NCBI GenBank assembly: GCA_976551045.1
Contig: CDPCPM010000005.1
Span: 22,816,001 to 22,880,000 of the forward strand
Source: Glaucostegus cemiculus
Taxonomy: Eukaryota
Reading direction: 5' to 3'
DNA length: 64,000 nucleotides
Notes under the pieces: generated by a model
What the model was told of the DNA's origin: nothing
Databases searched by the model: none
What the model saw: only the letters and a program-made list of their open reading frames with translations
In this document: positions 14,369-53,156 of the stretch, piece after piece
How the letters are laid out: each line of letters begins with the position of its first letter
How positions within the stretch are numbered: the first letter of the stretch is position 1
Program-made: the position numbers and the translations under genes

Positions 14369-14723
14369 GAGTATGTCAGGAGAATCAAAAGACAAAGAAA
14401 GGGATGACAACAAAGATGCAAAACCAAGGTCTTTAAGGTTCACATGGAGCATGAAGACCACTAGTTCAATGGATCCCAATGATATGATGCGAGAGATCCG
14501 AAAGGTGCTGGATGCTAATAACTGTGACTATGAGCAACGAGAAAGGTTCCTTTTGTTCTGTGTTCATGGCGATGCTCGACAGGACAACTTGGTTCAATGG
14601 GAAATGGAAGTCTGCAAGTTGCCACGTTTGTCTCTAAATGGTGTTCGTTTTAAGCGAATATCAGGAACATCTATAGCATTCAAGAACATTGCATCCAAAA
14701 TTGCAAATGAGCTGAAGTTGTGA
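14369..14723 (+). CDS. MARK1: MARK1 terminal coding exon (KA1 domain)
   Basis: Acceptor attttcag|G. Encodes SMSGESKDK...[39 protein letters not shown]...VHGDARQD...[10 protein letters not shown]. The DPNDMM and HGDARQD motifs are MARK1-type. Confidence 0.96.
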
Positions 14724-18419: not shown

Positions 18420-18686
18420 GCCGGGAGGACGCCGCTCTCCGCTTCCCCTCCCTTGCCCTGCCCCCGGGAGGACGCCGCTCTCCGCTTCCCCTCCCCGGCC
18501 CCCGGGAGGACGCCGCTCTCCGCCTCCCCTGCCCCGGCCCCCCGGAGGACGCCGCTCTCCGCCTCCCCTGCCCCGGCCCCCCGGAGGACGCCGCTCTCTG
18601 CGGCCCCGGCCCCCCGGAGGACGCCGCTCTCTGCGGCCCCGGCCCCCCGGAGGACGCCGCTCTCCGCCTCCCCTGCCCCGGCCTCC
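18420..18686. repeat. C-rich minisatellite, 7 copies of 33-43 nt (core GGAGGACGCCGCTCTC)
   Basis: Core recurs at 18425, 18468, 18506, 18545, 18584, 18617 and 18650. Confidence 0.92.
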
Positions 18687-25685: not shown

Positions 25686-25864
25686 CTACTTCTGAGCAGG
25701 AATAAGGTCATGAATAGATTTTCCTTGTTCAATATTTTTATCCATGCTGATCAACAGTTTAACGCCATCAACTACAAGCTGTAATTGTTGCACTTCGGAG
25801 AAACCAATTCTATCTATGTTAGAAATATCACAGACTTCACTTTCAATGGAAGCAAGGGCAGCAC
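25686..25864 (-). CDS. Creatine kinase-like gene, terminal coding exon G (179 nt incl. TAG)
   Basis: ttctctag|[61 protein letters not shown]; the PAQK terminus is typical of cytosolic CKB/CKM. Confidence 0.93.
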
Positions 25865-27831
25865 CTAGAGAAAAGATTAGTATATTGGTTAAATTAATAA
25901 ATGTATATTTTAATCGATTACAGGTAACTTATAACAGTAAACAGTAGCTTAATGGATTCATTGAATATATTGCAAAAGTAAAGGTAAGAGTACTTAAGAA
26001 AAAAAACATTGGGCTGTAATTTGCTGTCAAGTTTAAAGTAATAGCATGTGCTGTTATTTATATTTATGCAAATGCTGGACAAGCTTCAGGTGAGTGACAA
26101 CTGCAGAATTGTTTCATCTCTGTTGTCTGTCTCAATATTAAAGTGTCATGATACCTAATGTGAATTTTGACTTCACTGCATTTCAATTTGCACCTCTCAG
26201 TCTATATTTAAACTGTTTTGGTTCTTTAATTGGTTTAAAGGAAAATCCCTTTTTTGGGCAGATACTGGAAATCTGAAATTAAAAACAGAAAATGATGGAA
26301 GCATCTGATAGTTCAGGCAGCATGTAGAGGTTATTGTTATAAAGGCAAAACAGTTATTGTTTTGGATTTGGGACTCTTCATCTGATGTTGGGTCCCAGAC
26401 CTGAAACATTACCTCTTTCTAATTTAATTTGATTACTTATTTGCTCTGTTTACTAAAGTCCTGGATTTCTTTTGGATTCTGTTATCAGCTTGCCTTTTCA
26501 GTAAAATGCAAAGCAAATAAAGTGATTAAACAAATATTACCCTCTTGCAGCAAATGATGTGCCTGTTGTTTTGCTGACCAAGGCAATCAACTACATTAAT
26601 GAACAGGCTGGTGAGAAAGATGTGGAGAAGTAGAGCTGGGTTTCAATAACATGTACGTTTAACTGACCCCAAGACTTTGAATGCTGGCCAGGATGTAGGT
26701 GAAAAGAAGCCTAAAATAAATTCTTCAGAAATTATGGAATGACCTAGTGGCAGCAAAAAGCCGTATCTGATGATCGCATGATGATTTGACTGATGAGACA
26801 GAAGCTAAGTTCTCACCAAGATAGAGAGTGAAAGAAAAATTACATGGTCCACAATATCAGAGGCTGCAGGGAAGGTGTGGGGATTAATTGGACATTATAA
26901 GCAGAGGATGTCATTGTGGGTTTTTTTAGGGCTATGTCAGTACTATGGTAGAGATAGAAGCCTGATTAGAGATTCAAAGTGTTATGGAAGGGATGGTACT
27001 TAAGTAACTAAGTACTGATTTTTTTAATTATATAGAATATAATTTATTAATTATATGGAATATAAACTAGTACTTAATTACAAAATCAAAATTCTGCAGA
27101 TGCTAGAAAGCTAAAATATAAACTGAAATTGCTGGAAATATCCAAGGAGACGGGTAGCTTCAGTGAATGATGAAGCAAGAGTTAACATTCCAAATTGACT
27201 TTTGAAATACTAATTCTGTTTCTCTCTGCACAGATGCTGACTTACTGAGCACTTCCCACATTTTCTGTTTTGTTTATTGTTCTGTTAGTGAATGGCTATA
27301 GAATAGGCATTTCTGAAGAAATCATTAGAGATAATCAGATAGAAGCAGAAAAATTTAATATATTAACAAAAATGAAATGCATTAAAATATACAATATCTG
27401 TAACTAAAGTCTATAGAGTATTAATGCACTCCAGTCAAACTATCTGAAGTGAACAAACTAGGCCATAATGTTCGCTTGGTGGAGGTATACATTATTTTGA
27501 ATGGAGAATAAAAGATAAAAATATCCAGCCTGGTGTATGTGTGCAGATGAGCACAGTATAATTGAGTAACAAATATTGAGCCAACAAACAGGAACATACA
27601 CAGTGATGAACGTAGATGAGAAATGGGAGAACTTTCTCAAGAAATGCATTTTTCTTGCTGTAAAATAAAGGTTAGTATGTTATGAGATATCATGAAATTC
27701 AGATTGTTAATCACACATCAACAATTTGCAATACAAAGTATTCCAGCTTGGTGCTACTCACCATTTGGTTTAAATTCAAATAGTTACTCAATTAGTAATT
27801 TTATATGGAATTTTTAATTTGAATACAGTAC

Positions 27832-28021
27832 CAGTGAATTTCTTTTCTAGGCGTAGTCTCTGCAAGATCTCATCAAACTTCTCATGCTTACTGATGTACT
27901 TCAGCCTAATGTGGACACTTGCCCGCATGCCCGTGCCAAGTTCAGAAGGGCAAGTCATCACATAACCTAGATTATCCTTCCAGATGAAAGGGTGCTTTTT
28001 CTGGTGGTATATTTCTTCAAG
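27832..28021 (-). CDS. Creatine kinase-like gene, coding exon F (190 nt)
   Basis: tatttag|CTT...ACT G|gtactg. LEEIYHQKKHPFIWKDNLGYVMTCPSELGTGMRASVHIRLKYISKHEKFDEILQRLRLEKKFT; the phosphagen kinase signature CP[ST]NLGT reads CPSELGT. Confidence 0.93.
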
Positions 28022-28769
28022 CTAAATAAACAATCATGGTTATTTCTCAATCTTCTAAAAGTATGATGCAGTGGTAATCATCAGAAAATATTCTTTCATC
28101 AAGTTTCCTCATCAAAATAATTTCAAAGTGCAATTCTATATGTTCAACTTTGTAAGCATGTTGTCTCATATGAAGACTTTGAGATGTTACTACTTTTTCT
28201 TTCTGCTATCTCTTTATGATCTGATTGGCTTCTAGGCTTCATGATTTTACCAGACACTAGAAGGAAATAAAAGCCCAATTGGGAAATGCCAGGTGTCAGC
28301 TTGTGGAATGTCATGTTAAGTTTGTGAGTAAAAGAAGTGAAGTAACTGTATTTGCATTTTACCTCCCTTTTCAACTTGTATTTTCTTTTCCTTTATTTAA
28401 GGTTATCCAGTGTTGCATATATTTCACAAGTTTAGATATAATGTGGCATTAACTAAACTAAACCTGGCTACAATCTAAGCAGAATCAGGAATTGTACAGG
28501 ACATATTGCAAACACCATCTAATCATCTTTCTCTTCCAGAGTTTAAGTTTGTGACAATCTCATGACATTTCTGCCACTAATTAGGAAAGTTCTGAGGAAG
28601 CTCACTTGTATTTTGGTTCTTGACACACACAATAAAGAAACAAAAGCACGAGCCAGCTAATCAGACCTTCGCGCCTCCTCCAATATAGCTGGTCTTTAAC
28701 CTCAGTGCTATTTTCCAGGTCTAACCCTATATTCTCCCTTCAATAGCTTTAATGTGCAAACTCCATCAG

Positions 28770-29075
28770 TCTTGAGCAACAAACTCTGGAGGAACTCAGC
28801 GGGACGAGCAGCCTCTGTGGGAGGAAAGGAATTGTCGACATTTCGGGTTGAAACCCTGCATCAGGGTGGATGCTACCTATCACCACCCTGTACCCACCCC
28901 ACCTCCCCTCTTTTGTCCACCTATCACTGCTCTGTTTTTCCCCCCAATATATTGGGCTTCCCCTTATCCTATCTTCAGTCCCGAAGAAGGGCCCTGACCT
29001 GAAACGTTGACCTGCTTTTCTCCACGGATGCTGCCTGGCCTGCTGAGTTCCTCCAGCAACATCAGGTTTTTCATT
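28770..29075. mobile_element. Short interspersed element with inverted termini (CTGGAGGAACTCAGC ... GCTGAGTTCCTCCAG)
   Basis: About 90-100 nt imperfect inverted ends. Related termini at 2550-2590/2826-2915, 26260-26410, 27090-27270, 48595-48720 and 59380-59530. Family identity uncertain, possibly Penelope-derived. Confidence 0.6.
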
Positions 29076-30469
29076 GAGACTCCATTCCCCTCTAGGGTGG
29101 AAAACTTTAACAACTCACTTCTAACTGGGTGAAGAAATGAAATTTCTTCTCATCTGTTGTATGGATGGCGCCTTACTTTGAGACTCAGTCCTGGTTCTGG
29201 ACACCCCAATCAGCAGAAACTTAAGAAGGTGGCAGATTGAGGCAACAGTTAATACTGCTGTTTCACAGCTCCTGCGACCTGGATCCAACCCTGACCGGGT
29301 GTTGTCTTTGTGGAGCTTGTGTGTTGTGCCCTGTGATTATGTGGGTTGCTGCTGGATGCTCTGGTTTCTTCTCATATTCCAAATATGTGCTCGTAAATTA
29401 GTGTACATAACTGATAAAAGAATTAAAGAGGTGCTGATGGAATATTTGAGAGACAATAAGTACCACAGTTATAGGGAAATAAAGAGGGGGAATGCGACTG
29501 ATGAAATTGCACTGCTGGGAGTTGATGTGGGCCTGATGGGTTGGCTGGTCTCCTATATCATTGCACTTAAGTAATCCCTGCATCTACCCTGCCAGTATCT
29601 TAAGAATTTTGTATCTTTTGATTTCTCTTCTAAACCTCAGTTTAATTTCTCTTCACAGGTCAAAACTGCCATTTCAGGAATCAATCTAGTGATCTTCTGT
29701 TGCATTCGCTTAATCCTAAGTATATCTTTCCTTAGGTAGGGATACCAGACCTGTACACAATATTATTGAAATCTTCATTTGCCATTTGCCTTCCTAAGGG
29801 CTTGCTGTACTTGCACATTAACCTGCAATGCTTTGCAAACAAAGACACCTGGGTCCCACTGAACAACAACGCCTATCAGTCTCTCACTATTTAAAAAAAT
29901 ACCCAACTCCTTTATTTTCTTCTAACAAAATAGATGACATCACATTTTCCACATTATATTCTATTTGTCATGTCATTGTCCATTAGGTTAGCTGATTGAT
30001 ATCTCCCTGAAGCCTCTCTGCTTCCTCCTTGCAACCCAGCTTTGCATCATCAGCAAATTTGGATACATTTCACCTGATCCCCTCATCCAAATCACTGATA
30101 TAGTTTGGGAACATATGGGACCCTGCTACTGATTCCTGCAGCATCCAACTAAGTACAGCTACTAACCAATCCTCAGTAACCATCAGAATATTACAAACAA
30201 TCCCGTGTGCTCTCATTTTGTTTAATAACCTGTGTGATAGCTCATTAAAGGCCTTCTGAAAATTTAAATATATCAAATCCACTGGTTTTATCAATGCACC
30301 ACAGAAAGCATCCTATCTAGATGTATCACAGCTTGGTACAACAACTGATTTGCCCAAGACCACAAAAAACTGCAGAGAGTTGTGGAGACAGCCCAGCACA
30401 ACAGGGAAACCAACCTCCTCTCCATGGACTCTGTCCATACCTCTCGCTGCCTTGGTGAAGCAGCCAGCA

Positions 30470-33145
30470 TAGATACATAGATGTATAGATACTTACAGCA
30501 CAATTCAGGCCCTTCGGCCCACAAAGCTGTGCCGAACATGTCCCTACTATTAGGCTTACCCATAACCTTCTATCTTTTTTACCTCCATGTACCTATCCAA
30601 CAGTCTGTTGAAAGACCCCAAAGTATCCGCCTCCACCACCATCTCTGGCAGCCCATTCCACGCACTCACCACTCTCTGAGTAAAAAACTTACCCCTAACA
30701 CCTCCCCTATATCTTCCCCCCAGCACCTTAAACCTATGTCCTCTTGTGGCCACCATTTCAGCCCTGGGGAAAAGCCTCCGACTATCTACCCTATCCATAC
30801 CTCTCATCATCCTGTACACCTCAATCAGGTCCCCCCTCATCCTCCTTCTCTCCAAGGAGAAAAGGCCGAGTTCCCACAACCTGCTCTCATAAGGCATGCT
30901 CCTCATTCTAGGCAGCATCCTCGTAAACCTCCTCTGTACCCTCTCTATGGCTTCCACATCCTTCCTGTAGTGAGGCGACCAGAACTGAACACAATACTCC
31001 AGGTGGGGTCTGACCAGGGACCTATACAGCTGAAGCATTACCTCCCTACTCCTAAATTCAATCCCTCGACCAATGAAGGACAATACACCATACGCCTTCC
31101 TAACCACAGAGTCAACCTGCGCAGCCGCCTTGAGCGTCCTATGGACTCGGACCCCAAGATCCCACTGATCCTCCACACTGCCAAGAGACTTACCATTAAT
31201 TCTATATTCCACCAACCTATTCGACCTACCAAAATGAACCACTTCACATTTATCCAGGTTGAACTGCATCTGCCATTTCTCAGCCCAACTCTGCATCCTA
31301 TCTATGTCCCTCTGCAGCATCTGACAGCCCTCCAAACTATCTACAACTCCCCCAACCTTCGTGTCGTCAGCAAACTTACCAACCCACCCCTCCACTTCCT
31401 CATCCAGATCATTTATAAAGATGACAAACAGCAAGGGTCGCAGCACAGATCCCTGAGGTACACCAGAGGTCACCGACCTCCACTCAGAATATGACCCTTC
31501 CACAACCACTCTTTGTCTTCTGTGGGCCAGCCAATTCTGAATCCACACCGCAATGTCCCCCCGGATCCCATGTCTCCTCACCTTCTCCATAAGCCTTGCA
31601 TGGGGCACCTTATCAAAAGCCTTGCTAAAATCCATATACACTACATCTACCGATCTCCCTTCATCGACATTCTTGGTCACTTCTTCAAAAAATTCTATAA
31701 GACTCGTCAGACAGGACCTGCCCTTGACAAAACCATGCTGACTATTTCTAATCATGCCATACTTCCCCAAGCGTTCATAAATCCTGCCTCTCAGGATCCT
31801 CTCCAGCAGCTTACCAACCACTGAGGTAAGACTCACCGGTCTATAATTCCCCGGGCTATCCCTATTCCCCTTCTTGAATAGCAGCACAACATCCGCAACC
31901 CTCCAATCTACCGGAACCTCTCCCGTCTCCATCGACGACGCAAAGATCATCGTCAGAGGCTCCGCAATCTCCTCCCTTGCCTCCCACACCAACCTGGGAT
32001 ATATCTCGTCTGGCCCCGGCGACTTATCTAACTTAATACTCTCCAAAAGTTTCAGCATCTCCTCCTTTCTAACATCCACCCGCTCAATCCTTTCTGGCCG
32101 CTGCAAGCCCCCACTACAATCCCCTAGCTCCTTCTCCGTAGTGAATACCGAAGTAAAGTATTCATTAAGCACCTCCGCTATTTCTTCCGAGTCCATACAC
32201 ACTTTCCCGCTTCCACTCTTGATAGGCCCTATCCTTTCACATCTCATCCACATACCTGTAGAACGCCTTGGGGTTTTCCTTAATCCTACCCGCCAAGGCC
32301 TTCTCATGTCCACTTCTGGCTCTCCTAATCTCTTTCTTAAGTTCCTTCCTATTAGCCTTGTATTCTTCCAGATCACTAACATTACCTAGCTCCCTGTACC
32401 TTTTGTGCGCTTTTCTTTTCTCCTTAACTAGCTTTAGTATAGCCTCTGTGACCACGGCTCCCGCATCCTCTCACGACTTCCCTGTCTCATCGGAACATGT
32501 CTGTGAAGAGCTCCACCCAAATACCCCCTGAATATCTGCCACATATCCTCTGTACTTTTCCCAGAGAACATCTGCTCCCAATTTAATCTTCCAATTTCTT
32601 GCCTGAGGCCCTCATAATTCCCTCTACTCCAATTATACTCTTTTCTAGTGTGTCTGTTCCTATCCCTCTCCATTGCCAACATGAAGGAGATAGAATTATG
32701 GTCACTATCACCAAAATGTTCTCCCACCGACAGATCTGACACCTGACCAGGTTCATTACCCAGTATCAAATCCAGCACAGCCTCTCCTCTCGTAGAACTA
32801 TCCACATACTGTGTCAAGAACCCTTCCTGAGCACACCTAACAAACTCCAGCCCATCTAAACCCCTCACTGTCTGGAGACGCCAGCTGACATTTGGGAAAT
32901 TAAAATCCCCCATCACCACAACTCTGTTATTCTCACATTTTTCTAGGATCTGTCTCCCTATCCGCTCCTCAATAACCCTGTCACTATCAGGTGGCCTATA
33001 AAAAACACCCAGTAACGTTACCGACCCTTTCCTATTCCTGACCTCCACCCACAGGGACTCTGTAGGCAAATCCTCCACAGCTTCCACCTTTTCTGTAGCT
33101 GTAACACTCTCTCTGATCAACAATGCCACGCCACCTCCCCTCTTG
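30470..33145 (-). mobile_element. Young 5'-truncated CR1 LINE, ORF2 with partial APE endonuclease and RT, split by frameshifts
   Basis: ORFs 32434-33129 (VVVMGDFNFP, GDSDH) and 30556-32382 (NYRPVSLTS, YMDFSKAFDKV, GVPQGSVL, FADDTK). Sits inside an older minus-strand LINE (about 29590-30290 and 33150-33840). Confidence 0.95.
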
Positions 33146-33990
33146 CTCTTATCTTACCTTATCTACTCTGCTGGATACAACCTCAAAAATCTCTAACAGA
33201 CTCGTCAAACGTGATATCCTTCTCACAGATCTATCGTAACTCTATTACTGTTTCCTAATTGTACTGTTTCCACTTCCTTAATAATGGATTTTTTATTTTT
33301 CACTACTACTGACATCAGGGTAACTTGCTGTTGTCCTCCATTTTATCTCTCCCTATTTTACATTTGCACCCTTCAATCACTGGGAACAGTTTGAGAATCA
33401 ACAGAGCATTAGAAGTTGAAAACGTGCACCCACCATCTCTGTAAGCACTTCTAAACTTTGGGGTGCAGATCATCAGGTCCTGGGGTTTTAGTGGGTTTTT
33501 AGTCCTATTAATTTACTCAATGCTTTTTTTAATTAATTGCAATTTTTTTCAGCACCTTGTTCACTCTAGACTTGTCGTTCTCCATGATTTCCCAGAGATT
33601 TACTGTGCATTCCTCCACACAGACAAATAAAATATTTTCATTTAATTCCTTTGTCATTTATCATGTCCCAGTCAATAAGAGACTCACGTTAACTTAATTC
33701 TTTTTTCTTAAATATTTCTGTAGATGCTCTTAGGGTCCTAGCTAAGTTACTTTTGTATTTTACTTCCCTTTTTCTTATCAATTTCTTGGTCTTCTGCTGA
33801 ATTCTAAAATTAATCCAATCCTCGGCTCTTTTGGCAATGTTATAAACCTTTTCATTTTGTAGCAAGTGTTCAATAACTTTTATGCCTTAAAAGGAGTATA
33901 TATTTGTTGTAAACTGTGTATTCATTCTTTAAAATTGATAAAGCAACAGCTTATACTTGGAGTAATATTTAAAAATGTAAAAGTTATTAC

Positions 33991-34114
33991 CTTTTTAAGA
34001 CCCAAACAATACTGTGTGAAAGCTTGCTTCAGGTCCCCCCCCTGTTGCATAGAAATAATTCGAAGATGGTCTTCTTTATTGACCCAGACAATAAAATTCT
34101 TCATATCATTGTGC
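33991..34114 (-). CDS. Creatine kinase-like gene, coding exon E (124 nt)
   Basis: ttacag|G...AAG|gtaat. [41 protein letters not shown]; the NEEDH motif reads NKEDH. Confidence 0.93.
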
Positions 34115-35225
34115 CTGTAATGTGTAAATTTATCATTTGTATCTTTGAACTCAAATAGGATTGTATTTCAACAATCAAAGGTAGGTTTTTTAGAATCAGC
34201 TCATCACTGCGTGTGAATATTTCAAGTAACCTTTGAAAAACCATGCCTAGCTTCCTTTGTGCAAAACATCAAGATATTGGCCCACATAGAAGGCTCAGTA
34301 TCTCCTAATTTCTACTCATACAAAACTACTGTTTCATCTAATATTTCTTACCAAAATAATTTACCTTGTCGGAATAAGTTTATTACACCAATTAAGCATC
34401 ATTTCATATAAAATTTCTCTATTTTGTTCTTAATTGGATGGATAAGAGTCTGAGAAGATTAGCTTACAGTAGAACTGCCACTCTTGAGAAGCCACAGAAA
34501 CTGTCAACGGTGGTTGTGCATTGAAACCATTGTTAATCTGTTATCTCCAGCTGCCAGTCACAATATTTATTATATCACATAGCTCTTAATTAGGATAAAA
34601 ATTGTCATCATAGTAACATTCAATTATTCTCCTCAGTTTTAAAACACTACTTTTAAATGTACCAATAAAATGAATCATTTGTTTCAAGACACTTAAGCTT
34701 TAAAAAGTAACAGAAATTCTTTGTTAACATTGCATGTTGAAAAAACAATAAGGAATCATAACAATTTAACATGCCCCACTCATACAAATTTATATTTACC
34801 CCAGAAAGAGCCACGTTGCACAAGCTATTTTTCTGCATTTTCTATTTTTCCTTGGGCTTCCAAGTGACCATGGTTAAACTGTTTGCTGGACTAACTACTT
34901 ATTGGATTACTCCAATCTATACTGATAGTTGATGAAAGTCTAAGGCCGAACTTCCCTTTCATCCTTTGGTTTCCCCCCCACCCCCCAGCCCACCATTCTT
35001 GCCCACTAGATCACACGTATAATCAATTGCGCTGCTTCCTGACCTTTGATAGGCTATTCCAAGTTGCCCACCGGATTAAAAAAGGATGCTGTAAATGTAC
35101 TTAAAATTGGTGTTTGATGCCAATGTGTCAGAGGAACTAGATAAATGACTCAACAGCATGGTGAAACCTGGCCTATGGATTGAAAGACTATTTGGCAAAC
35201 ATGCGACATTTAAAAACACACTTAC

Positions 35226-35397
35226 CAGACTCCCCGTGCATCTGGCCAATCTCTGGCCATTCCAGATGAAAGCATCCTTGGAGTAACAAGATCATCAGTA
35301 AGGATTCCAGCATTGGTCAGACCCTGACGGTCTTCCTCACTCAAGTTCCTCAATGAGTGATAAGTGCCCTTAAATTCATCATCCATTGCATGGAGGG
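35226..35397 (-). CDS. Creatine kinase-like gene, coding exon D (172 nt)
   Basis: ccatag|CC...TG|gtaag. ALHAMDDEFKGTYHSLRNLSEEDRQGLTNAGILTDDLVTPRMLSSGMARDWPDARGVW contains the SGMARDWPDARG motif. Confidence 0.93.
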
Positions 35398-35544
35398 CTA
35401 TGGATGATAATTTGATTGAAGTAGATGGAAACAGACATAGTCAGGATAGCTAAAACTGAAGAGTAGGTTTCAGGTTTTTTAATGCTGTTATATTCCATTC
35501 AGTACTTAGTTCCTTGCTTTTTGTAACATAAATTGATAAATTAT

Positions 35545-36000
35545 GCAGAGGATATTAAAAATTGACCACATGGTGGCAGTTAGAAAGAAAGCTTTAGTGT
35601 ACAGGAAGAAATACAAAGTCTGCTCAGTAGGGAAGATGAAAGGCAAATGGAATTTAATCCATAAATGTGCAAGTTAATGCATTTGGAGATATGTAGCAAG
35701 GCAAGGAAATATACAATATAAGGCACAATATTGAGTGACATGGAGAAACAAAGAGACAGCACACATCCATAGATCTTGAAAGGTAGCAGAACAGATCAAG
35801 AAGGTAGTTATAAAAGCACATGGGATGCTTTATTTTATTAACCATGGCAAAGAATTTAATAGCAGGAAGGATGTGCAAGAACTGTATGCAATGCTAGTTA
35901 AACCACAGCTTCAGCATGAATTCAGTTTTGATCACCTTGTTAAAGGAAATATGTGATTACACTAGAGAAGGCAAAGAAGAGATTTATGGGGACATTGAAT
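35545..36000 (+). mobile_element. Degraded CR1 fragment
   Basis: Remnants of the WQMEFN..KC..MH and LY..LV.PQL coding regions. Confidence 0.65.
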
Positions 36001-39000
36001 GACCTGGCAAACACCTTGAAATTCAAATGATATTATCATTTCATTTTTGAATAAAATATTTTAATTTAGAATACCTTCATGAAACAGCTAACACAAGATA
36101 CATCATTATGTATTCCACACCCCAAGTGCAACCCTACATATATCTATAGAATTAACCTTAGACAACCTTTGTAGCTGTTTTTCAGTCCTATGTTCATTGA
36201 TTGCAGCTCAAGATCAAAGGCATTGCCACTGCTGGCCCTCATCCATTTAATCCAGACTCTGCAGTAAGGCTGGTATCTACTTAGTGGCAACAGTAAATAT
36301 AAGACTGTGTTGTAGGAGGGGAATGCTTCCCACTGCTATTCAGCTGTCAGAGTATGTGTTGTACTCTGCAGGGAGCTGGCAACTTCCCAGCTTGTTGCCT
36401 TTATAATAAATGAATTTTCAGAAGTCTCCTAAAGTAACTCACAATGAAACCACAGGGACTTGGACAAAAATATCAATGCTCATATGGAAGTCAAAACCAT
36501 TCAGTTGAAACTCAAATGCTTTTAAACTCTGGCAAAAACGTAAGAATATAAAACAAAAACTGATAATTATAAATATCAAACTACAATGGACAACATTCTG
36601 GGAAAACAAATGCTGAAACAAACACAATTGTTAATTGACAGCCAAGTAGCTGCTTAGCTAGTAAGCAATTTAATAGCACCATATTGGGAATTTGTACTTA
36701 AACTAACAAATATTGGAAACAGTTACACTAAGAAAGGCTGCATGGCAGTTAGAACAACAAACAGTTTTTAAAAATTCAGAGCAACAATAGATGTAATTGG
36801 CAATAATAAGTAAATATCTATACTTTATCTCAGAACAGAAGATGGCTGTCTAATTAATAGATTGGGGTTGAGAGAGAATAATAAATCAGCCAACTCAATG
36901 GGCTGAATGGCCTGAATGGCCTGATTCTGCTCCTATGTCCTAGGGTCTGACAGTCTTATTGGTCTAATTCATCACTTGGATAGAATGATGGTCAGTTGCC
37001 AGCTATTAAGATAGACATCCTTATTCTGACTCCCATTAAAAGTCTAGTTTGCTATTCAGTCATAAAATACATTGTATAGAAAAGGAATGACTGGACAATT
37101 TGAGCAGAGAGCATATAATGAAATGAAATGGTAACAGTGCAACATAGGAACAGAATGAAAATACTACTACCAGCAATGATTTAGGCAGAAGGTAATTTGA
37201 AAACATAATGGAGAATCTGTGTTAAACTTTAGTAAGACTACAGTTAAGAGCAGAGTGAGCACTTTTGGGCTCAACTCTATTAGAAGGATGTTGACATAAT
37301 AGAGATAGAACGCCACAGGATGCTACCTGATATGAGTAAATACAAACATAAAACTTGTAACATTGGAGCAGTCATTGTTAATCAGGAGAGATTAAAATGT
37401 TTATAATTCTGAGGGTCAGAGTAGATGGAACAAGTGGCCAAGGGATTTAGAATGAGAACATAGATATAATATTACATCTATGAGATCTAGGACAGAAACA
37501 GGTGGTGTGCTTTTGCATACAGAGTTGCAAGGCCATATTGAAGCTACTGATTGAACCAGAGGCCATACGCAGTAGCAATAAATCTGATAGACTGTAATAA
37601 AGGGTGTAAGTGGATACTGGAAAAATATGAGCACTTGGGATTAGGATTACGACTTGTGAGAGAGTTGAACATCAACATGGACTGTTCAGGTAAGAGGACT
37701 GATTCCACGTTCTAATTTCAACGTACTTAATCATGTTAACGGACACCAGGTCAAAAGAGGAACGGCTGAGAGATGAAGAAAATGGAAAGAGTGAAGGAGA
37801 CAACAGATAGGGTAAGATCCTTGAATGGCTAAAATGCAAAAATTTGAATGAGGCCAATTGTCAGGGGACACTTTCCACCAGTATTCTTGTTTCATCGGAC
37901 ACTTCGTAAATCGTAGGCCAGTAAAATATTCTATCATCAGGTAAGTGTTAAAGGAAGACAGGAACTGCTAGTGGGAGACTTGTTGATCAAAAAATAAAAT
38001 TATTTTGATGTGATCTGAATTTTTGAATGGTGTCTGGCCTTAATGAAAATTAGGGAGTACAGAAAAGATCTAGTAATTGATAGGCCAGCTGTCATCATGG
38101 TTAAATGGAAAGATCTTTTGTGAGAAATATGTGGAACGATAAAAACTAAAATCCAAAATTGTCAAAGATAGTATTTTTGGGAATATGACCCACTTCAACC
38201 TCCAAGTTGAATTAGTGGAGGAAGCTTAAGATATATAAAGATAAATGTCTTCTGACACCTTGCCTTGTCCTCAGCATATCCCAAAGCACTTCACAGTTAA
38301 TGTATGAGTTTTGAAATGTAATCATTATTGTAGGTAAACACAGTAGTGTACAGCAAGATCCCACAAACATCTGGTCATGATGAAAAAATAACTCTCTGTG
38401 CCATCCAATTGGATAGAAATTTCATTTGACTATTATCTATTGGCCATACCAAAAGGTGAAAACACCAGGATTAATTGCTGTTGGCAAGATCTCCACCATA
38501 GATATAATTTCTATGGATAGAGTTTCAAATAAAACAACTAAGAAGGATAAACTTGAATAATTTTAAAATGTATGTTGAATAAATTCTGGCAATTATTTGC
38601 ATTTAAATGGATTCCATTTACTAACAAGCCATTTTGCTGCTAATATAATAAATTATTTTCATGAGGGGGAATAATTGCCAGATGAATCCAACAAATTATG
38701 GTAACACAGTTGTTTTGTTATGGTGGGATGACTTAGTAAATCATGATGAAAATTCCAGCCCAAAACACTATTATAGCTCACAGATCTAGCCAAAAGCACA
38801 GTAGCTGATGGCTTTAGAGAGTGCCATCTTCAGGCAGAACTTATTTGAAGACAGCATTGTTTAAAACCTTTGTACTCTGAGCTGTTAAGAGATTTTCTCT
38901 TCTACTGAAATTAGACTAAAATGTAGACATTCTCTTAACTTTTAAAAGGCAGTTATTCTTGCTTTTCCTGATCCACCATGATCTTAAACTGTATGGTTTC

Positions 39001-39358
39001 ATGGAAACAAGGACAGACAAATGGATGCATAAGTGACAGAGAATATTTCAGCAGCTTCCCAACTACCCTTCAGATGACAACCGATAAAAATAGCACAAAA
39101 AAAAACCCTCAAGTTATTTTAAGCCGACACATCAACAAAGAACATTTGTCCTTTCGGGAGGGTTTAACTTGTGTAACAGCTGTAATGTTTTCCCCCAATT
39201 ACCCACTAGATGGTGATAGAATTCTTTCAATAAGCACAATAGTTTAGGTTTATTAATTCCGGGAAGTATAAAAGGTGGAACAAAGGGATTGTTTTTGGCT
39301 TTTATAATTAATTCTGTGTCCAGCTATTATGGTGTTGAAGAAACAGAAATAAAATTAC

Positions 39359-39491
39359 CTGCTATTGCAAGCTTTTCCAGTGCACGTCTCTCCCCACGGC
39401 TGCAGTGTGGTGGGAAACTAAAATCATCCACATTGCGTCCTGTGCTCACTCGACATACCTGCACATATTGTCCATCTAGATCAGATCCACC
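39359..39491 (-). CDS. Creatine kinase-like gene, coding exon C (133 nt)
   Basis: ccggcag|GGT...GCA G|gtaatt. [44 protein letters not shown] contains the [12 protein letters not shown] motif. Confidence 0.93.
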
Positions 39492-40135
39492 CTGCCGGGG
39501 GAAAGAGTGAATACTGTGCAATAATCTTATTAACTGAATATTATATTGAGTTAAACTTATTAGAGACCAGGAGCACAAGATTCAGCGCATTCTAGGGTGC
39601 AGTCATTCATTTGTGCCTGAAAACGTATACAAAGTAGCGCCGCACTGGGTTGTAGGGGGGGATCTGTGCAAGTTTGTCCCGGAGCCATTAATGCAGGACG
39701 TTCATGCACGAACGTCATTGCAAGGACTTGCATGCTTCGATCACACTGTTCTCTCCATTAGAGTATGCCATGTACGAATAATTTCTGGAGTCCTGCAGAC
39801 TAACTGAAACTAGCGAACATTAATTGACATCAACCCTGCATCTCTTAAAGGGGAGGTGAGCACCAAATCCAAGCCCCGTTGTGTTATTTTATTGTTGACT
39901 GGAGAAAAGAATGGCTACACAAAACATAAACACATTCCCCTATTCATTAAGAAATCCAAAGAGAAAGCTGGTCAGAGAGATCGAAGATGTGCAGTGATAT
40001 CCCACAAAAAGTGTAAGGATTTCATCCATCTGGGTTAGGAACAAACGTCACCTGCTAAAGATTCCACTGCTATAATCTACTTAAACATAGCACATAACTC
40101 ACACACCCATCCAACTGTTCAAGCATGCAGATTTA

Positions 40136-40161
40136 ACACACACACACAGAGACACACACAC
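40136..40161. repeat. (CA)n microsatellite, interrupted
   Basis: acacacacacacagagacacacaca. Confidence 0.8.
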
Positions 40162-40214
40162 TGCAAAGCACTTGCATTCTTCACTCACAGGAAACTACAG
40201 ATTGTAACAGCTGA

Positions 40215-40580
40215 CCAATAGACAATAGACAATAGGAGCAGTAGACCATTCGGCCCTTCGAGTCTGCTCCGCTATTTTGAGATCATGGCTGATCCTCAAC
40301 ACTCAATATCCCGTTCCTGCCTTGTCCCCATATCCCTTGATTCCCCTATCTATAAGAAACCTATCTAGCTCCTTCTTGAAAGTGCCCAGAGAATTGGCCT
40401 CCACTGCCCTCTGAGGCAGTGTGTTCCACAAACTCACAACCCTCTAGGAGAAGAAGTTTTTCCTTACCTCTGTCCTAAATGGCCTACCCCTTATTCTTAA
40501 ATCATGCCCTCTGATCCTGGACTTCCCCAACATCTGGAACATATTTCCTGTCTCTATCTTGTCCAATCCCTTAACAATCC
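40215..40580 (-). mobile_element. LINE (CR1-like) 3' end
   Basis: Reverse-complement 3' UTR with a short tandem tail (caatagacaatagacaatag). Confidence 0.7.
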
Positions 40581-41417
40581 AGCTATACTAGATCCACAGG
40601 TTGAGCTGTCTGGAGCTCAGGGTTTTGGCATTCATGGCTTGTTCACCAGAGTCTATGGCTTGTGGAAGAACAGATAACATAAGGAGTGCAGTGTGCCAAG
40701 ATCAAGTTCTCCCCACATCCTTCTCATTAGCTTCTTATAACATGCCCTTCTTAACTGCCTCTGCCCGTCAATGTGACCATATCTTGTTGCCTTCCTCATT
40801 TCAGAAATTCCAAACATACCATCTGCTAGATCTCAGCAGTGGAGATGTGCTGAGATCTAGCACAAGGGGGAGGAAGAAGACAATACAGGAACAAGACAGA
40901 CATCGGTGGATCGGACACTGCTATCCTTCAGCTCAGCTCCTGGCACTTCAGATATTAGTGAGTAGTTTAGCAGCAGGGTTTGCGTGCAGTGAGTCACCAA
41001 ACATGAATGCACTGCAGCCAGGCCCAGAGAAAGGGCAGCTCCTGTGCCAGCTCCCCAGAGGTGAGATCATCCACCAGTCCTACTCCAGATAACTCAAGAT
41101 GATAATTACAGTAGGGCAGCCTTTAGAAGAAGGCTGATGAACTTGCACAAGGAGATATCTACAGCTTTGTCTAAGCTGCCAGAAAGCCTGCATGAGAAGA
41201 TATTTGACAAAGTCCCACATCAGAGATTGGTGTGCAAAAATTAAAGCATATGGGATTGGGCATAATATACATGCATGGATTGAAAATTGGTTGGCAGAGA
41301 GGAAACAGAGCAGGAGTAAGTTGGTCTTTCTCAATGTGAAAGAGGTGATTAGTGGGGTACCACCTGTGTCCCAGCTATTCACAATCTATATTGGTGATTT
41401 GAATGAAGGAATTAAAT

Positions 41418-42873
41418 TTCCTCCAAAGTGTCTGAATGACTACCGTCCTATAGTCCTAACACCGATTGTCATGAAATGCTTTGAGAGGCTAGTTATGAAG
41501 CACATTAGAGCCTCCCTCCCCCCATCCTTGGATCCTCATCAGTATGCTTATCGGGCAAACAGGTCCACCGATGATGCAGTCTCCTCTGCCATGCACTCTG
41601 CACTACATCACTTAGAGAAGAAGGACTCATACTGCCGGCTGCTATTCATTGACTTCAGCTCCGCTTTCAATACCATCATCCCACAACAGCTTATCAGGAA
41701 GTTGAGCGCTCTGGGCATCAACACTCCTCTCTGCAACTGGATACTGGATTTTCTAACTGGCAGGCCACAGTCAGTCAAAATTGGTGAAAACACCTCAAGC
41801 ACCATCACACTGAGCACTGGCTCCCCTCAGGGTTGTGTGCTCAGTCCGCTCCTGTTCAACTTGTTGACCCACGACTGTGAGGCCAGATTCCGCTCCAACC
41901 GCATTGTTAAATTTGCCGATGACACGACAGTGGTGGGTCTTGTTACGAATGACGATGAGTCGGACTATAGAGAGGAGGTGAACCAACTAGCCGTGTGGTG
42001 CCATGACAACAACCTCTCCTTGAATGTGGATAAAACCAAGGAGATGATAGTGGATTTTAGGAGGGGTCATCGTGTGCACGCTCCGCTGACCATCAACGGG
42101 TCTGCTGTGGAACAAGTACACAGCACCAAGTTCCTGGGGGTGCACATCACCGACGACCTGACCTGGTCCACTAACATTACGGCCCTCACGAAGAAGGCTC
42201 AGAAACGCCTCTACTTCCTGCGGAGACTGAGGAAAGCGTACCCACACCCTTCAGTCATGAAATCCTTCTACAGGGGGACCATTGAGAGCATCCTAACTCA
42301 ATGTATCTCTGTTTGGTTTGGAAGCTGCTCAGCTGCTGGGCGGAAGTCCCTCCAGAAGATAGTTAAGGCTGCGGAGTGGATCATAGGTGTCTCGCTTCCA
42401 TCCCTCGCAGACATATACAAAGACCGTTGTGTGAGGAAGACAAAAAGCATAATGGCTGACCCCTCTCACCCCTCCCACCACCTCTTCACAATTTTGCCAT
42501 CAGGGAGGAGGCTTAAATGTATCAGGGCAAGAACGTCCAGGCTGAACAATAGCTTCTTTCCGCAAGCCATAAGAACTGCAAACTCTCTCATCCCTCCATC
42601 TTCCTTTGTTAACACTAGGAGATGCTAGGTGCACAGAAATGCACCAGCACTCCAAATGCCTGACACCAGCCCGTTCACTTTAAGATATATTTATGTAAGA
42701 ACTAATGGGTAATGTTTTGTACTGTGTATTTTGTACTGTGTATGTGTCTCTCTGTTGGCTGTTATGTTATTCTTTTCTATGAGACGTGTTCCTGTGGAGG
42801 ACGGTATCTCGCTCCTATGCGTACCATGTATGTATATGGTTGTGACAATAAAAACTGATTCTGATTCTGATTC
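41418..42873 (+). mobile_element. 5'-truncated Rex1/Babar-type non-LTR retrotransposon with uninterrupted RT
   Basis: [76 protein letters not shown] plus (GATTCT)n tail. Inserted in an old CR1 with an approximate TAAAT duplication. Confidence 0.9.
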
Positions 42874-43159
42874 TAAATGAAGCATTTCTAAACTTGAAAC
42901 CCAGTGGTATTACAGGTTGTGAGGAGCTTGCAGAAGTTTCAAAGTGCTGCAGACAAGTTGAGTGAGTGGGAAAATATGGCAAATGAAGTAAAACAGAGAT
43001 AAATATCAAATTATCTACTATGGTTCCAAAAATCAGAAAGATTGGGAACTAAGAGACATTGGTGTCCTTCTACACCATTCCTAAAAGCAAACTTGCAGGT
43101 GCAGCAAGCAGTTCAGAAGCTATATGGTACTTTGCCCCTCACTGTGAAAAGTTGTGAAT

Positions 43160-44610
43160 ACAGGGTGGCGAATGTTGTCCCCTTGTTCAAGAAAGGTAGT
43201 AGGGATAGTCCAGGGAATTACAGACCGGTGAGTCTCACGTCTGTGGTGGGTAAACTGTTAGAAAGGATTTTAAAGGATAGGATCTATGAACACCTAGAGA
43301 ATAATGGTCTGATTAGCGACAGCCAGCATGACTTTGTGAAGGGAAGGTCTTGCCTCACAAGCCTGATAGAGTTCTTTGAGGAGGTGATGAGGAAGATTGA
43401 TGAGGGTAGTGCAGTGGATGTGGTCTACATGGATTTCAGTAAGGCATTTGATAAGGTTCCTCATGGTAGGCTTCTTGAGAAGGTCAGAGGTCAAGGGATT
43501 CAAGGAAGCTTGGCTGTGTGGATTAGGAATTGGCTTGCCTGTAGAAAGCAGAGGGTTGTGGTGGAGGGAATGCCCTCGGATTGGAGGGCTGTGACTAGTG
43601 GTGTCCCGCGGGGATCGGTTCTGGGACCTCTACTTTTTGTTATATTTATAGATGACTTAGATGAGGGGGTGGAAGGCTGGGTTAGTAAGTTTGCCGATGA
43701 CACTAAGATCGGCGGTGTGGTGGATAGTGTGGAGGGCTGTCAGAGCTTACAGAGGGATATTGATAGGATGCAGAGCTGGGCGGACAAGTGGCAGATGGAG
43801 TTCAATCTGGAGAAGTATGAGGTGGTGCACTTTGGAAGGACAAACTCCAGGGTGGAGTACAAGGCAAATGGCAAGGTACTTAGCAGTGTCGAGGAGCAGA
43901 GGGATCTGGGGGTTCATATCCACAGTTCATTGAAAGTTGCCTCACAGGTGGATAGGGCAGTTAAGAAGGCCTATGGGATGTTAGCTTTTATAAATTGTGG
44001 GATTGAGTTTAAGAGCCGCAAAGTGATGATGTGGCTTTACAAAACTCTAGTTAGTCCACACTTAGAGTATTATGTTCAGTTCCGGTCACCACATTATAGG
44101 AAGGATGTGGAGGCATTGGAGAGGGTGCAGAGGAGATTTACCAGGATGCTGCCTGGATTAGAGGGTATGGAATATGAGGAGAGGCTTAAGGTGCCAGGGC
44201 TTTACTCATTGGAGAGGAGGAGAAGGAGAGGAGACATGATAGAGGTGTATAAGATATTGAGAGGAATAGATAAGAGTAGACAGCCAGCGCCTCTTTCCCA
44301 GGGCACTGATGCTCAAGACGAGAGGGCATGGCCTTAAGGAATTGGGTGGGAAGTTCAGGGCATATGTCAGAGGGAGGTTTTTCACCCAGAGAGTGGTTGG
44401 TGCATGGAATGTGCTGCCTGGGGTGGTGGTGGAGGCAGATACGTTGGACAAGTTCAAGAGATTGTTGGATAGGCATATGGAGGAATGTGGGATGGAAGGA
44501 TATGTGGGAGGAAAGGGTTAGATAGTGTGAGGTGTAGTTTGATGGACGGCACAACATGGTGGGCTGAAGGGCCTGTATTGTGCTGTATTGTTCTATGGTT
44601 CTATGGTTTT
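43160..44610 (+). mobile_element. Young 5'-truncated CR1 LINE (RT), one frameshift near 44275
   Basis: VANVVPLFKKG, NYRPVSLTSVVGKLLE, YMDFSKAFDKVPH, FADDTK, and a (ttctatgg)2 tail. Confidence 0.95.
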
Positions 44611-45678
44611 GATATCTTCCCACAATTACATAGGGTTTTGGTGAGATCACACCTTGAGTGCTGTGTGCTGCTTTAGTCTCCTTACCCAAGAAAGCCTATA
44701 CTTGCCATAGAGGGAGAGGAGCGAATGATCACCAGACTGATTCCTGAGATGTTGGAATGGTGGGACTGTTGTATGTGGGGATTCGCTGGTCTGTATAGAC
44801 TAGAGTTTAGAAGAAGGAGATGACATTGAATCATAAAAAATTTTGACTGTTCTGGACAGACTCAGTGTAGAGAGAATGTTTACCCTGGCTACAGTGGGGG
44901 GTGGGGAGCAGTTCTTGAATGAGTGGTCCCCCTTTCGGATGTGAGGTCAGACATTTAGGACCGAGATGAGGAAAGATTTTGTCACTAACTGGATGGTGAA
45001 CCAATGGAATTCTCTACCTCAGAAGGCAATGGATGGATGGATTTGTAAGGAGATGGCAGCTTCAAGGAAAATTAGAGGTAAATGTTAAATAGTGACCTTG
45101 AAAGTGTGGCTAACATTGTGTGAATGATAGAAGTTGTAATCATTTAATGAATCAAGATACTTCACAGGCAGGGGTCAAATGTAGGAAGAGGGTTGCTGAG
45201 CTGATATAAGTGTTAAAAAAAGAACTTTTAAGGAGGCTTTGGAAGATGAGAAATGTTACAGGATAAGGACTTTAGGGAGAATATTGCACTTATTAATTCT
45301 TTCGTAAAAACATAACTGATACAAGTAAGATTAAAAGTCATCGGGAAAAGTATCAACTAAGATGATGGTATATTCATTGTTCATTGGTTATGTGCCAATT
45401 GGGCAGGTAGAGTTAGGGACTAGTCAATGAAGGGAGAAATGGGCATCACTTGATCCATGGGCTACAGTTTGCTAAAGTTAGAGGCGTGTATTTTGTGAGC
45501 CTGGGTTTATTAATTTGGAAAATCATAAGTACTTATGATAACTACAAGATTAAAAGGTGAGAAATTAATAGGAAGGATTATTCATTCTCTGTGGAAATAG
45601 CCCATTTAATGAGCTGAATAACTTATTTACATTTTATGTATAATTGTCATCTAATAAAAGATAGTTTTATAAATCTAC

Positions 45679-45833
45679 CTTTAAGTTTTCTGGATTCATG
45701 TCACTCTTATGCTTTTCATTTGCCTTGTAACCACTGTGATAAAGTTCAATAAGAGGATCAAAAAACTGCATGAAGACAGTATATGATTCTGCATCTCCAG
45801 CCACACAGCCCACTGTTCTCTTGCAAGAATGCT
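45679..45833 (-). CDS. Creatine kinase-like gene, coding exon B (155 nt)
   Basis: ttatag|AG...AAG|gtagat. (E)[51 protein letters not shown] contains the [10 protein letters not shown] motif. Confidence 0.92.
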
Positions 45834-46290
45834 CTATAATGCAAGCAAAAAAAAACCAATGTCAATTAAATCCTTATAATAATTTAACACCACTGAATAA
45901 CACACATGTGTTCTTTCTAAAATTAAAAGATTGACATATTTACATGTTATTCAGTGAAATAGTCCAAAGGCAATGATACTTAGCATAATATTAGTCAACT
46001 ATACTCCTAAAAGGATTATTTATTCCCTACAACTCCAGAAAACATGAAGAACAAATGTCCCTCTGCAGGACTGTACTCAAACACTACATGAACAAAACTC
46101 CAGGAATACAGCATCAGAATGGGCAACTGCTAAATACCAAAGATTGATGAAAGGTGAAACATTGAAACTGTACTTCAAAATCACAAATAGAAAATCTACA
46201 AATGATTCAGTTTATGAAGTTGAAATGTGTTGCAATATTATTTTACTGAATGAAATCATAAGTAATTATTTATATTAAGATGCCACTTAC

Positions 46291-46483
46291 CAGGATTATC
46301 TACACCAGGCTGGATAACATCATCTAGTGTGAAGCCACTTTGAGTTGCCCGGTTCCTCAGTCTCTTGTACATTTGGATTGTAAGAACATTTGCCATATAG
46401 GTCTGGTTTTTGCCCAAGTTTGGAAATTCTTCTTCAGCTGACAATTTTTTAATGTTAATTGCAGGATCACGTGGAGTTAATTG
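46291..46483 (-). CDS. Creatine kinase-like gene, coding exon A (193 nt, no ATG at codon 1)
   Basis: attttag|CAA...CCT G|gtaagt. QLTPRDPAINIKKLSAEEEFPNLGKNQTYMANVLTIQMYKRLRNRATQSGFTLDDVIQPGVDNP aligns without gaps to CK residues 1-64. Confidence 0.85.
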
Positions 46484-48007: not shown

Positions 48008-49591
48008 TAGAAGCAGAAGTTGGCACAAGGCTCTTCAAGCCATTCAATTAGATCTTAGCTTCACTTTCCTGCCAGTTGCCCATAACTTCTTTAATTACTT
48101 GAATTAAAATTCCCACCTGCCATGGCACAGTTCAAATCAGATCTATGGTTCAGGCTTCTGAACTGGTAGCCCATGAACCTGCTGCACCTCACTCAAAACA
48201 ATCAAAAATACATTCTTATTATGTGACACATTTCAGTAGCCAGCAAACAGTGTGAAGGTGCTTTGTTATAGTAATCTCAATAATGGGAGATGAAAGTATA
48301 TCTAGAGTAGTTGTGATCTAGAATTCACCGCCTGTATAGTGATGGTAGATCACTGCCTTTGAAAAGGGAATTGAATGGGCACTTGAGAAGGAATAATTTA
48401 TCAGGTTATGGGGAAAGAGTCAGGGAGTGTGAATCATACGATTGGTTTGCCAGGGGTCAACTTGGACTCGATGGGTCAAATGGCCTCCTGCGCCATAAAA
48501 AATTCTATAATTCCCAGATCACGAGGATCTAAATCCCAGTTGTGGCATTGGTTGACATTGAGTATAAAACATTTCATAAAGCATCACACAAAGCGCTGGA
48601 GGAAATCAGTAGGTCAGGCAGCATCTATGGAGGGAAATGGACAGTCGACGTTTCGGGTCGAGACCCTTCATCTGGATTGAAAGATAGAAGGGAGATAGCC
48701 AGTATAAAGAGGTGGCGGGAAGGGCGCATGCTAGGACTAGCAGAGGAATTCGTGAAGATTTTTTATGTCTAAATAACTGTAATTTAAATGACAATGCTAT
48801 GTGATTTGACACGTTCCATTTAAATAACGATTGCCGACGCATCAGAAAACTGACCAACGCTGAGTTATCTATTTTTACACTAACCATCCTATCCTAAGCC
48901 AATCCCAGCCTGAGACTCTCCCCAAAGTCACAAATGATCTCCGTGCAGACAGCGTGTCCCGCTCTGTTCAAATTGTAAAGATTTCAAACACGTGGTAAGC
49001 TGTTTAAAAATAGATCAAATAATCGTGCAATTCTTGGCAATGGCAAATGCACATATGCTTCGTATGCAAATACCTGGAACGCACGTTGCTAATTCTCCCT
49101 TGTTTGCCTATAGTATAAGTGAAGAAAGTTGGTTTTGTTTATTTCAAATTACAAACCTCCAAAATGTGGTTGTACTTGAGACTGAGTGGCAATTCCAGCG
49201 GAGCTGTTGGAAACAACAAACAAACAACGTGTAAATTCTGTAGAAATATCTGTAAATACTGTCACCCAGCGCTTCAATGCAAAAAATGCAATAACAATAA
49301 ATATATATTATGGGGCGGGGGGGGGGGGTGTACCTAATCGATAGAGCTCAATTAAGTTTCAAACTCATTGCATCCCGAACTGCCACTATAGGAGAAGGTA
49401 ACCTGAATGGACATTGTCACTTTCAGTCCAGCTATTCCCTGTCTCTGCGGAACCAGCCAACTACAGTTACTATTGTATCGGTTATACGAAATTTGATTGG
49501 CTTCCTTTCCAGGAGTTTAAAGGTCTTGACGATCTCACATTTCAATTTGCTTTCGTAACGATTGCAATGAAATACTGTAAGCAAGACTTAC

Positions 49592-49950
49592 GTTTTAGTT
49601 TCCACATTGCTGCGGCGACGGGCGACGCACAGACTTTATGTTGCTGGTGAGAACAGACCAACCTCCGCGAGTGACCACTCGCAATGTGCTCGTGTTCAAT
49701 TCCAGGAGTTCAGATCGCTTTGGTCTCACTTGAAATGTGACCTCGACTGTTAGAGGTTTGGATTATTTGTAACATGTAAAGTCCGGCTCCCGCCGGGCAC
49801 ACAGTGGCGAGGAATTTAACTCTTTCCTGAAGGAGTTTTCCAAACCGGGGGTACAGCACCATGGAGAAAAACTTCTATCGACACGTCTGTTTCTATCTTG
49901 TGTTCAGGCATAAGGCTGGCGTTGAGAGGAATCCGTTTTGCGTTAAATGG
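49592..49950 (-). promoter_or_regulatory. Candidate promoter / first exon of the CK-like gene
   Basis: Locally CpG-enriched unique sequence with a strong minus-strand donor AAAC|GTAAGT at 49592/49591, about 3.1 kb upstream of coding exon A. Confidence 0.45.
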
Positions 49951-52575: not shown

Positions 52576-53156
52576 CTATTGATCTTCAAGATCGGTTAAA
52601 TCCACAATGACTTTGATGAATAATGTGTCATCTTTTATAAATGTTCCTGTTTTCCCACCTTCAAGTACTGCGTGAGATACAAATCGTGGACACCCAGATG
52701 CAATATTCATTTCCGAAACCGGCCTTTTAAAACTGGTGCTGTTGGCGTCAGCCTTAAAGAGTTCTATTATGTGATGTTTTTTTGGGCCCTGGTCAAGAAG
52801 TGTAAGAGTGACCTTCTGTTTAAATGGCCACATCAACAGAGAGTCATACTCACCTTTCATAACAACAAAAAACAAAGATAAATGTGTTCCTTTGCCTGCT
52901 CCATCTCCATTTAAATATGCCCTAGCACAGAGCCTGTATCCACAGCGACTTGTGTAAAAGGGCTGGCTGAAAAGAGAAACAGCAGTTCCATCTGCTGCTT
53001 CCTGCTTTCTTCTTCTGTAATTGCAGATCTTCCAAATCAGTTTGCCATTGTAGCCAGCTGCTTCTAAAACTCGAAATCTTTCATTAGTCTTTTCCAGCAG
53101 CTTCTTATGAGCATTTAACAATAATTCATGTTGCTTCAGGCATGGCTCAAAAGAAA
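52576..53156 (-). CDS. TRAF5: TRAF5 terminal coding exon (TRAF-C/MATH domain)
   Basis: cactttag|TT. YNGKLIWK...FYTSRCGYRLCARAYLNGDG...WPFKQKVTL...MNIASGCPRFV...VDLTDLEDQ*. FYTSRCGYRLCAR and DLTDLED are TRAF5-type rather than TRAF3-type. Confidence 0.95.

Follow-up and report, generated by a model that had tools for sequence, protein, structure and literature searches.

A fish creatine kinase paralog with a replaced active site and a retained dimer surface, a candidate non-catalytic subunit

Vertebrates are known to have four genes for creatine kinase (CK; EC 2.7.3.2), an enzyme familiar from textbooks. On the minus strand of a 64,000-nt stretch of contig CDPCPM010000005.1 of Glaucostegus cemiculus (hereafter, the window), we identify an intact, spliced CK paralog, orthologous to zebrafish zgc:172076, in which active-site residues are replaced and residues of the dimer surface are preferentially kept. 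We propose, with a probability of roughly 0.55, that the encoded protein has lost phosphoryl transfer and is a non-catalytic subunit that pairs with an active CK, to which an N-terminal extension contributes docking. Under this proposal, whole-genome duplication would have left a third surviving copy of cytosolic CK in addition to CKB and CKM, phosphoryl transfer would have been lost through replacement of active-site residues, the old dimer surface would pair the paralog with an active CK, most likely CKB or CKM, and the conserved extension would anchor or tune the active enzyme.

Results

Loss of active-site residues in two fish lineages

Active-site residues were compared on an alignment of 231 proteins of 330-460 aa, shorter and longer proteins having been dropped, with 80 canonical CK, 38 cartilaginous-fish (the window protein included) and 113 ray-finned rows. 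The rows are database proteins that include isoforms and share common ancestry, and the resulting counts and P values describe a pattern rather than independent events. Tested ligand sites are invariant in 79-80 of the 80 canonical rows. R96Y/C, R132S/C, H191G and E231K are present in all 38 cartilaginous rows, and N286E/D is present in 36/38. The ray-finned rows carry C283S (111/113), R130E (104/113), R341T (108/113) and a gap at position 325 (109/113), with Met, Ile, Asn, Leu or Val at position 231 in 110/113. The NEED acidic cluster at 230-233 is broken in the family, with E232 remaining in this copy, and the five phosphate-binding arginines (130, 132, 236, 292 and 320), complete in 80/80 canonical rows, are reduced to 1-3 in cartilaginous rows (3 in this copy) and 0-2 in ray-finned rows. 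The H191/H296 pocket, R96 and the closing loop fail the canonical pattern as well (H191G, R96Y, V325A and D326L), with H296 retained. Through C283S and the loop gap, the ray-finned zgc:172076 branch is further degraded than the copy in the window.

The original prediction had listed R132S, H191G, E231K, N286E, R320K, G321F, V325A, D326L and S128V as replaced, and E232, R130, R236, C283, S285, R292, H296, D335 and R341 as retained, in this copy. All of these assignments were recovered, together with R96Y, T59P, I69K, G294S and G324A, which were absent from that list. S128V is particular to this copy, the database relative P0137 having Ala, and R130, intact here, does not stand as a conserved feature, as it is Arg in just 12/38 cartilaginous rows and Glu in most ray-finned ones.

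For a quantitative comparison we relied on 15 ligand residues named in 10.64898/2026.08.04.742861 and 10.1101/2024.06.18.598884, instead of an alternative 26-site list that was drawn partly from general background and picked after the data had been seen. Of these 15 residues, the cartilaginous lineage keeps four and the ray-finned lineage one, with no residue kept by both; the corresponding counts for the 214 other invariant positions are 127, 98 and 81. The latter source reports that, in human mitochondrial CK, Glu226 touches Mg2+ and its E226A substitution cuts activity strongly, that His186 stacks on adenine, and that Asp321 latches loops (10.1101/2024.06.18.598884). Under our own numbering offset of +5, these residues correspond to cytosolic E231, H191 and D326.

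Conservation of fold, dimer surface and N-terminal extension

P0137 passes the Pfam cut-offs for both PF02807 and PF00217 (ATP:guanido phosphotransferase) and aligns gap-free to solved CKM over CK residues 15-381, in agreement with the earlier claim that the paralog carries no indel relative to CK. Its structural model adopts the CK fold (predicted local distance difference test, pLDDT, 86.4), with a template modeling (TM) score of 0.86 to the transition-state complex 1u6r, the type of structure against which a comparison had been suggested; the closing loop is modeled at pLDDT < 50. Of the 20 canonical invariants in an interface set derived from a model, both lineages retain 14 and this copy retains 18, compared with 67/194 kept in both lineages elsewhere, the 15 ligand sites being set apart (Fisher P = 0.003).

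When CKB of Stegostoma was modeled together with the family member of the same shark, the predicted complex scored 0.81, the best of three controls reaching 0.08, with contact agreement across runs of at least 72% and partner pLDDT of at least 82. The score mark applied is reached by 51/78 solved and 2/108 mismatched pairs and, because CK dimers have already been solved, passing it denotes likeness to such dimers, not binding. Positions of the N-terminal extension that are found repeatedly from sharks through teleosts are Trp, Lys, Pro-Pro, Tyr, Leu-Glu and Asp-Pro.

Gene structure and splicing

The seven minus-strand GT-AG exons originally described were re-derived exactly, with the lengths claimed, and a re-check of the window confirmed that they encode 381 uninterrupted codons, followed by a stop, with PAQK as the last residues. 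The exons are thus correct, but they are not the whole gene: the first of them lacks a start codon, opening directly after a splice acceptor with Gln as its first residue instead of Met. Ortholog proteins are ~21 residues longer than the seven-exon model, and tblastn with these proteins placed two upstream coding micro-exons, at 49607-49592 (16 nt) and 49203-49157 (47 nt), with proper splice signals. The paralog consequently comprises nine coding exons and 402 aa, the micro-exons encoding a 21-residue N-terminal extension (Table 1).

Table 1. Coordinates of the CK paralog exons and of neighboring genes in the window
Feature	Position	Strand	Remarks
CK paralog, coding exon 1	49592..49943	-	5' untranslated region, ATG at 49607 and 16 coding nt; upstream limit is merely the end of contig X1
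CK paralog, coding exon 2	49157..49203	-	47 nt, remainder of extension; tblastn 15/15 residues identical to P0002; AG/GT ends; X1 joints
CK paralog, coding exon 3	46291..46483	-	193 nt, CK residues 1-64; acceptor start, no ATG; T59P
CK paralog, coding exon 4	45679..45833	-	155 nt; specificity loop, I69K, R96Y
CK paralog, coding exon 5	39359..39491	-	133 nt; R132S; conserved dimer segment 145-152
CK paralog, coding exon 6	35226..35397	-	172 nt; H191G; conserved dimer segment 209-213
CK paralog, coding exon 7	33991..34114	-	124 nt; E231K; E232, D233, R236 retained
CK paralog, coding exon 8	27832..28021	-	190 nt; C283, S285, R292, H296 retained; N286E, G294S, R320K, G321F; collinear with ortholog proteins
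CK paralog, coding exon 9	25686..25864	-	179 nt including stop; closing loop 323-330 rewritten
MARK kinase gene (KA1 domain, MARK1-like), last coding exon	14415..14723	+	tail-to-tail with CK paralog
TRAF gene (MATH domain), last coding exon	52576..53100	-	~2.6 kb upstream of CK paralog first exon

A spliced contig, X1 (1394 nt, depth 20), covers exons 1-7 and carries intron-type joints from exons 1-2 through exons 6-7, including 49592/49203 and 49157/46483; joints 7-8 and 8-9 are read from the genomic sequence. The source run of X1 is labelled 'probably DNA', yet X1 itself is spliced. The 14 differences listed between X1 and the window imply seven amino-acid changes, and because all seven match P0137 we regard X1 as a transcript of a close relative, not of the sequenced individual. 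Raw RNA runs gave almost no exon depth in 3/3 and the listed joints in 0/3, a result that fits restricted expression and does not name a tissue. The introns harbor long reading frames of the LINE (long interspersed nuclear element) type at window positions 30556-33153, 41141-42628 and 43003-44337, two of which are identified by Pfam as reverse transcriptase.

A zgc:172076 ortholog family spanning cartilaginous and ray-finned fishes

A search with exon 8 returned 13 proteins from 21 candidates, 12 from named cartilaginous fishes and one unnamed, and cluster look-up raised the named cartilaginous species to 20. The unnamed match has the same N-terminus and falls into one cluster with proteins of sturgeon and paddlefish that carry the name zgc:172076; a search with it yielded 118 proteins from 136 candidates, the named ones being ray-finned or cartilaginous and including zebrafish zgc:172076. 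The window protein shares 97.5% identity with P0137, 70% with its chimaera counterpart, 56% with that of sturgeon and 48% with that of zebrafish, and 55-57% with CKB/CKM. Family members are open and collinear in the 20 named cartilaginous species and in many ray-finned fishes, at 48-97% identity. No lobe-fin or tetrapod member was present among the named matches of these word-limited searches, which do not thereby prove loss in tetrapods. Among 145 new cluster representatives, three are family-like, each nearest to a teleost row, and ESM Atlas returned only CK clusters for the protein.

Trees were inferred on 47 rows (quick) and, after removal of the first exon and ~23 active-site columns, on 26 rows (careful). 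Both trees group the family in a single clade, which the careful tree supports at 100/100 on a stem of 0.47 and places within vertebrate cytosolic CK (99/99). The window gene is a member of this clade, together with named zgc:172076 proteins and shark and ray records labelled 'creatine kinase M-type-like', all with the extension in common; database records label the family creatine kinase or zgc:172076, or leave it unnamed. The gene is older and more widespread than the original prediction supposed, its N-terminal extension, its identity with zgc:172076 and its presence beyond cartilaginous fishes having been overlooked. Megalops has two family members (P0164 and P0165), and both copies have therefore been kept in at least one teleost.

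Genomic neighborhood and origin

CKB (C103) and CKM (C607) of the same genome were identified by at least 90% identity to named shark proteins. A MARK paralog lies tail-to-tail with each of the three genes, 44 kb from CKB, 10 kb from CKM and 11 kb from the gene described here. CKB also has a TRAF paralog at a distance of 0.77 Mb. Three of the four MARK paralogs found in the genome have a tail-to-tail CK, and no CK was found within 26 kb beside the fourth, up to the contig end. We take the TRAF neighbor of the paralog to be TRAF5-like on account of its motifs, and likewise assume the arrangement in human and the names MARK1, MARK3, MARK4, TRAF3 and TRAF5. Internal exon lengths equal those of own-genome CKB (five checked) and CKM (four checked). 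In the teleost gene model P0246, the front half of this gene is fused to a kinase tail under the source name MARK1; the fusion is probably an annotation artefact, yet it indicates adjacency to MARK1 in that assembly. Because the tail-to-tail MARK arrangement is the same as with CKB and CKM in this genome, the simplest reading is that the gene is likely a third copy of cytosolic CK, beside CKB and CKM, from a whole-genome duplication whose date we infer.

Further features were observed at these loci. The exon at 46291-46483 carries L14, M38, K40, R45 and A46 as in teleost testis-type CKB N-termini, and S49, L53 and D55 as in the ordinary type; with five diagnostic positions for, three against and equal overall identity, descent from the alternative 'testis-type' CKB first exon is a lead. 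The own-genome CKB locus (L022:2394-2549, G000:C103) contains, ahead of the next exon, a decayed duplicate of the intact first coding exon of CKB, which may be a relic of the alternative 'testis-type' exon in teleost CKB records. GC-rich tandem arrays lie between the MARK gene and the CK paralog, at window positions 18424-18683 (33-39 nt unit) and 19130-19992 (37 nt x 23.4 copies, 97% match). Two identical mitochondrial-type CK exon matches lie ~63 kb apart in opposite orientation on another contig (G000:C311; L004, L005), reflecting either a recent duplication or an assembly artefact.

Literature and published expression lists

A full-text literature search found no paper describing this gene or any vertebrate CK pseudoenzyme; most subscription journals were outside its reach, and the gene is not thereby shown to be undescribed. 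As a gene, '172076' was not found in the supplements of PMC8961980 (testis single-cell markers) and PMC5523153 (testis- and ovary-biased lists), nor in the searchable supplements of PMC11607696, PMC8762341, PMC4199137 and PMC6405523. The supplement of PMC5690287 gave four '172076' matches, of which two, among the matches listed, are digits inside numbers. Expression in testis and sperm or in motile cilia, considered as a candidate, finds no support in these lists, and strong testis bias is mildly disfavored because the first two lists hold ckba without 172076.

Discussion

The results presented above bear out the earlier proposal that selection has kept the CK fold without canonical catalysis, in that similar losses recur in both fish lineages, the interface is preferentially kept and the pseudogene alternative fails. 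The components of our proposal differ in strength. The structure of the gene, its splicing in a close relative, its orthologs and neighborhood and the pattern of lost and kept residues are direct observations; the CK fold and a canonical dimer interface are predictions. The family is very probably without meaningful CK activity, with lower odds for the shark and ray proteins; 'dead' is a status that we infer from sequence, more firmly for the ray-finned than for the shark and ray proteins. Family members probably dimerize. The identification of the partner as CKB or CKM, and not the protein itself only, falls slightly short of even odds, and a docking role for the extension is evenly balanced. 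More tentative is the full scenario in which a pseudo-CK, a dead third ohnolog kept since before the split of sharks and bony fishes, would form heterodimers with CKB/CKM and use its newly gained N-terminal peptide to tether or throttle, within a single cell type, the phosphocreatine shuttle; the gene would have been lost in land vertebrates.

Several observations weigh against the proposal of a non-catalytic subunit. The extension is modeled in P0137 at low confidence (pLDDT 38-60, with a helix at 12-22), its residues are absent from the listed predicted interface, and it has no match in ESM Atlas. The predicted complex is blind to the distinction between homodimer and heterodimer, and the model-derived interface residues may also hold the fold. 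C283 with S285 is retained here and in 36/38 cartilaginous rows, and E232, D233 and R236 in 38/38, which points to possible residual function or ligand binding. Taken alone, this copy keeps 8/15 of the literature-named ligand residues, versus 148/214 in the background, a difference that is not significant (P = 0.25). According to the published work on mitochondrial CK, the D321N mutant has a kcat near wild type and E227 mutants have some activity left (10.1101/2024.06.18.598884). Lastly, the tree has a long stem and fails to resolve the sister group of the family, and same-genome synteny fits a whole-genome duplication but does not date one.

The same pattern of lost and kept residues would be expected of a dead CK-fold homodimer acting as a structural or scaffold protein apart from phosphocreatine metabolism, an explanation that we consider unlikely. 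Family-specific conserved changes occupy 21 positions in both lineages, several of them in the N-terminal domain, and could favor self-pairing, and teleost members share only 42-43% identity with CKB and CKM of shark. The interface, however, remains at the canonical CKB/CKM state, 18/20 in this copy, with no joint drift to a private interface. Somewhat less likely again is a shark and ray protein that remains an impaired enzyme or a sensor of creatine, phosphocreatine or a nucleotide, full loss being confined to ray-finned fishes. The invariant K231 of the cartilaginous rows (38/38) could take over the Mg2+ contact or pair with E/D286, and the retained E232, D233, R236, C283 and S285 of these rows, together with R130, R236, R292 and H296 in this copy, accord with such a role. 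R132, H191 and R96, on the other hand, are replaced in every cartilaginous row and R130 is kept in few, the closing loop varies freely and is modeled with low confidence, and the retained residues may have structural roles or decay slowly.

A substrate-switched, arginine-kinase-like phosphagen kinase is suggested by Tyr at position 96, presumably the arginine-kinase residue, which occurs in 35/38 cartilaginous and 64/113 ray-finned rows. Yet 18/27 unnamed non-family domains with Y96 keep all five arginines, whereas family rows never keep more than three, and C283 is also lost in ray-finned members; given the arginine set of those other domains, we regard such a switch as highly improbable. A young or decaying pseudogene, to which the nearly empty RNA runs and the 13 codons classed between window and X1 (seven non-synonymous and six synonymous, and hence a constraint looser than in canonical CK) might point, is excluded in its young form and scarcely credible otherwise, given the open, collinear orthologs described above in both fish lineages, a spliced contig, and fewer differences between window and X1 in coding sequence (19 in 777 nt) than in the mostly untranslated first exon (22 in 351 nt).

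A fifth CK gene extending from sharks to zebrafish, with its active site erased and its dimer surface kept, would provide CK with a non-catalytic subunit. It would also illustrate cleanly how a copy from a genome duplication can survive when it abandons catalysis. If the proposal is true, an enzyme thought to have no regulatory subunit would have one built in. Many fish records named 'creatine kinase M-type', 'B-type' or 'testis isozyme' refer to this gene, and such labels probably misstate its activity, affecting readings of fish transcriptomes and proteomes.

In comparison with known systems, the paralog resembles CKB and CKM in sequence identity, fold, internal exon lengths, tail-to-tail MARK neighbor and dimer residues, and differs from them in its replaced active-site residues, its 21-residue extension from two micro-exons and its long branch. 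Arginine-type phosphagen kinases, such as the dimeric arginine kinase 3ju5, have a CK-like fold and a non-Arg residue at position 96, as in this family. The principle is not unique, because unnamed long multi-domain proteins (P0270-P0414) also contain degenerate phosphagen-kinase domains: 175/258 domains examined keep three or fewer of the arginines, hinting at other pseudo-domains, although the query profile and the pairwise alignment, which is rough at ~30% identity, bias this count. More generally, there is a class of pseudoenzyme paralogs with a regulatory or scaffolding role toward active members of their families, characterized by a conserved fold and interface, loss of catalytic residues and long retention, as in the family described here.

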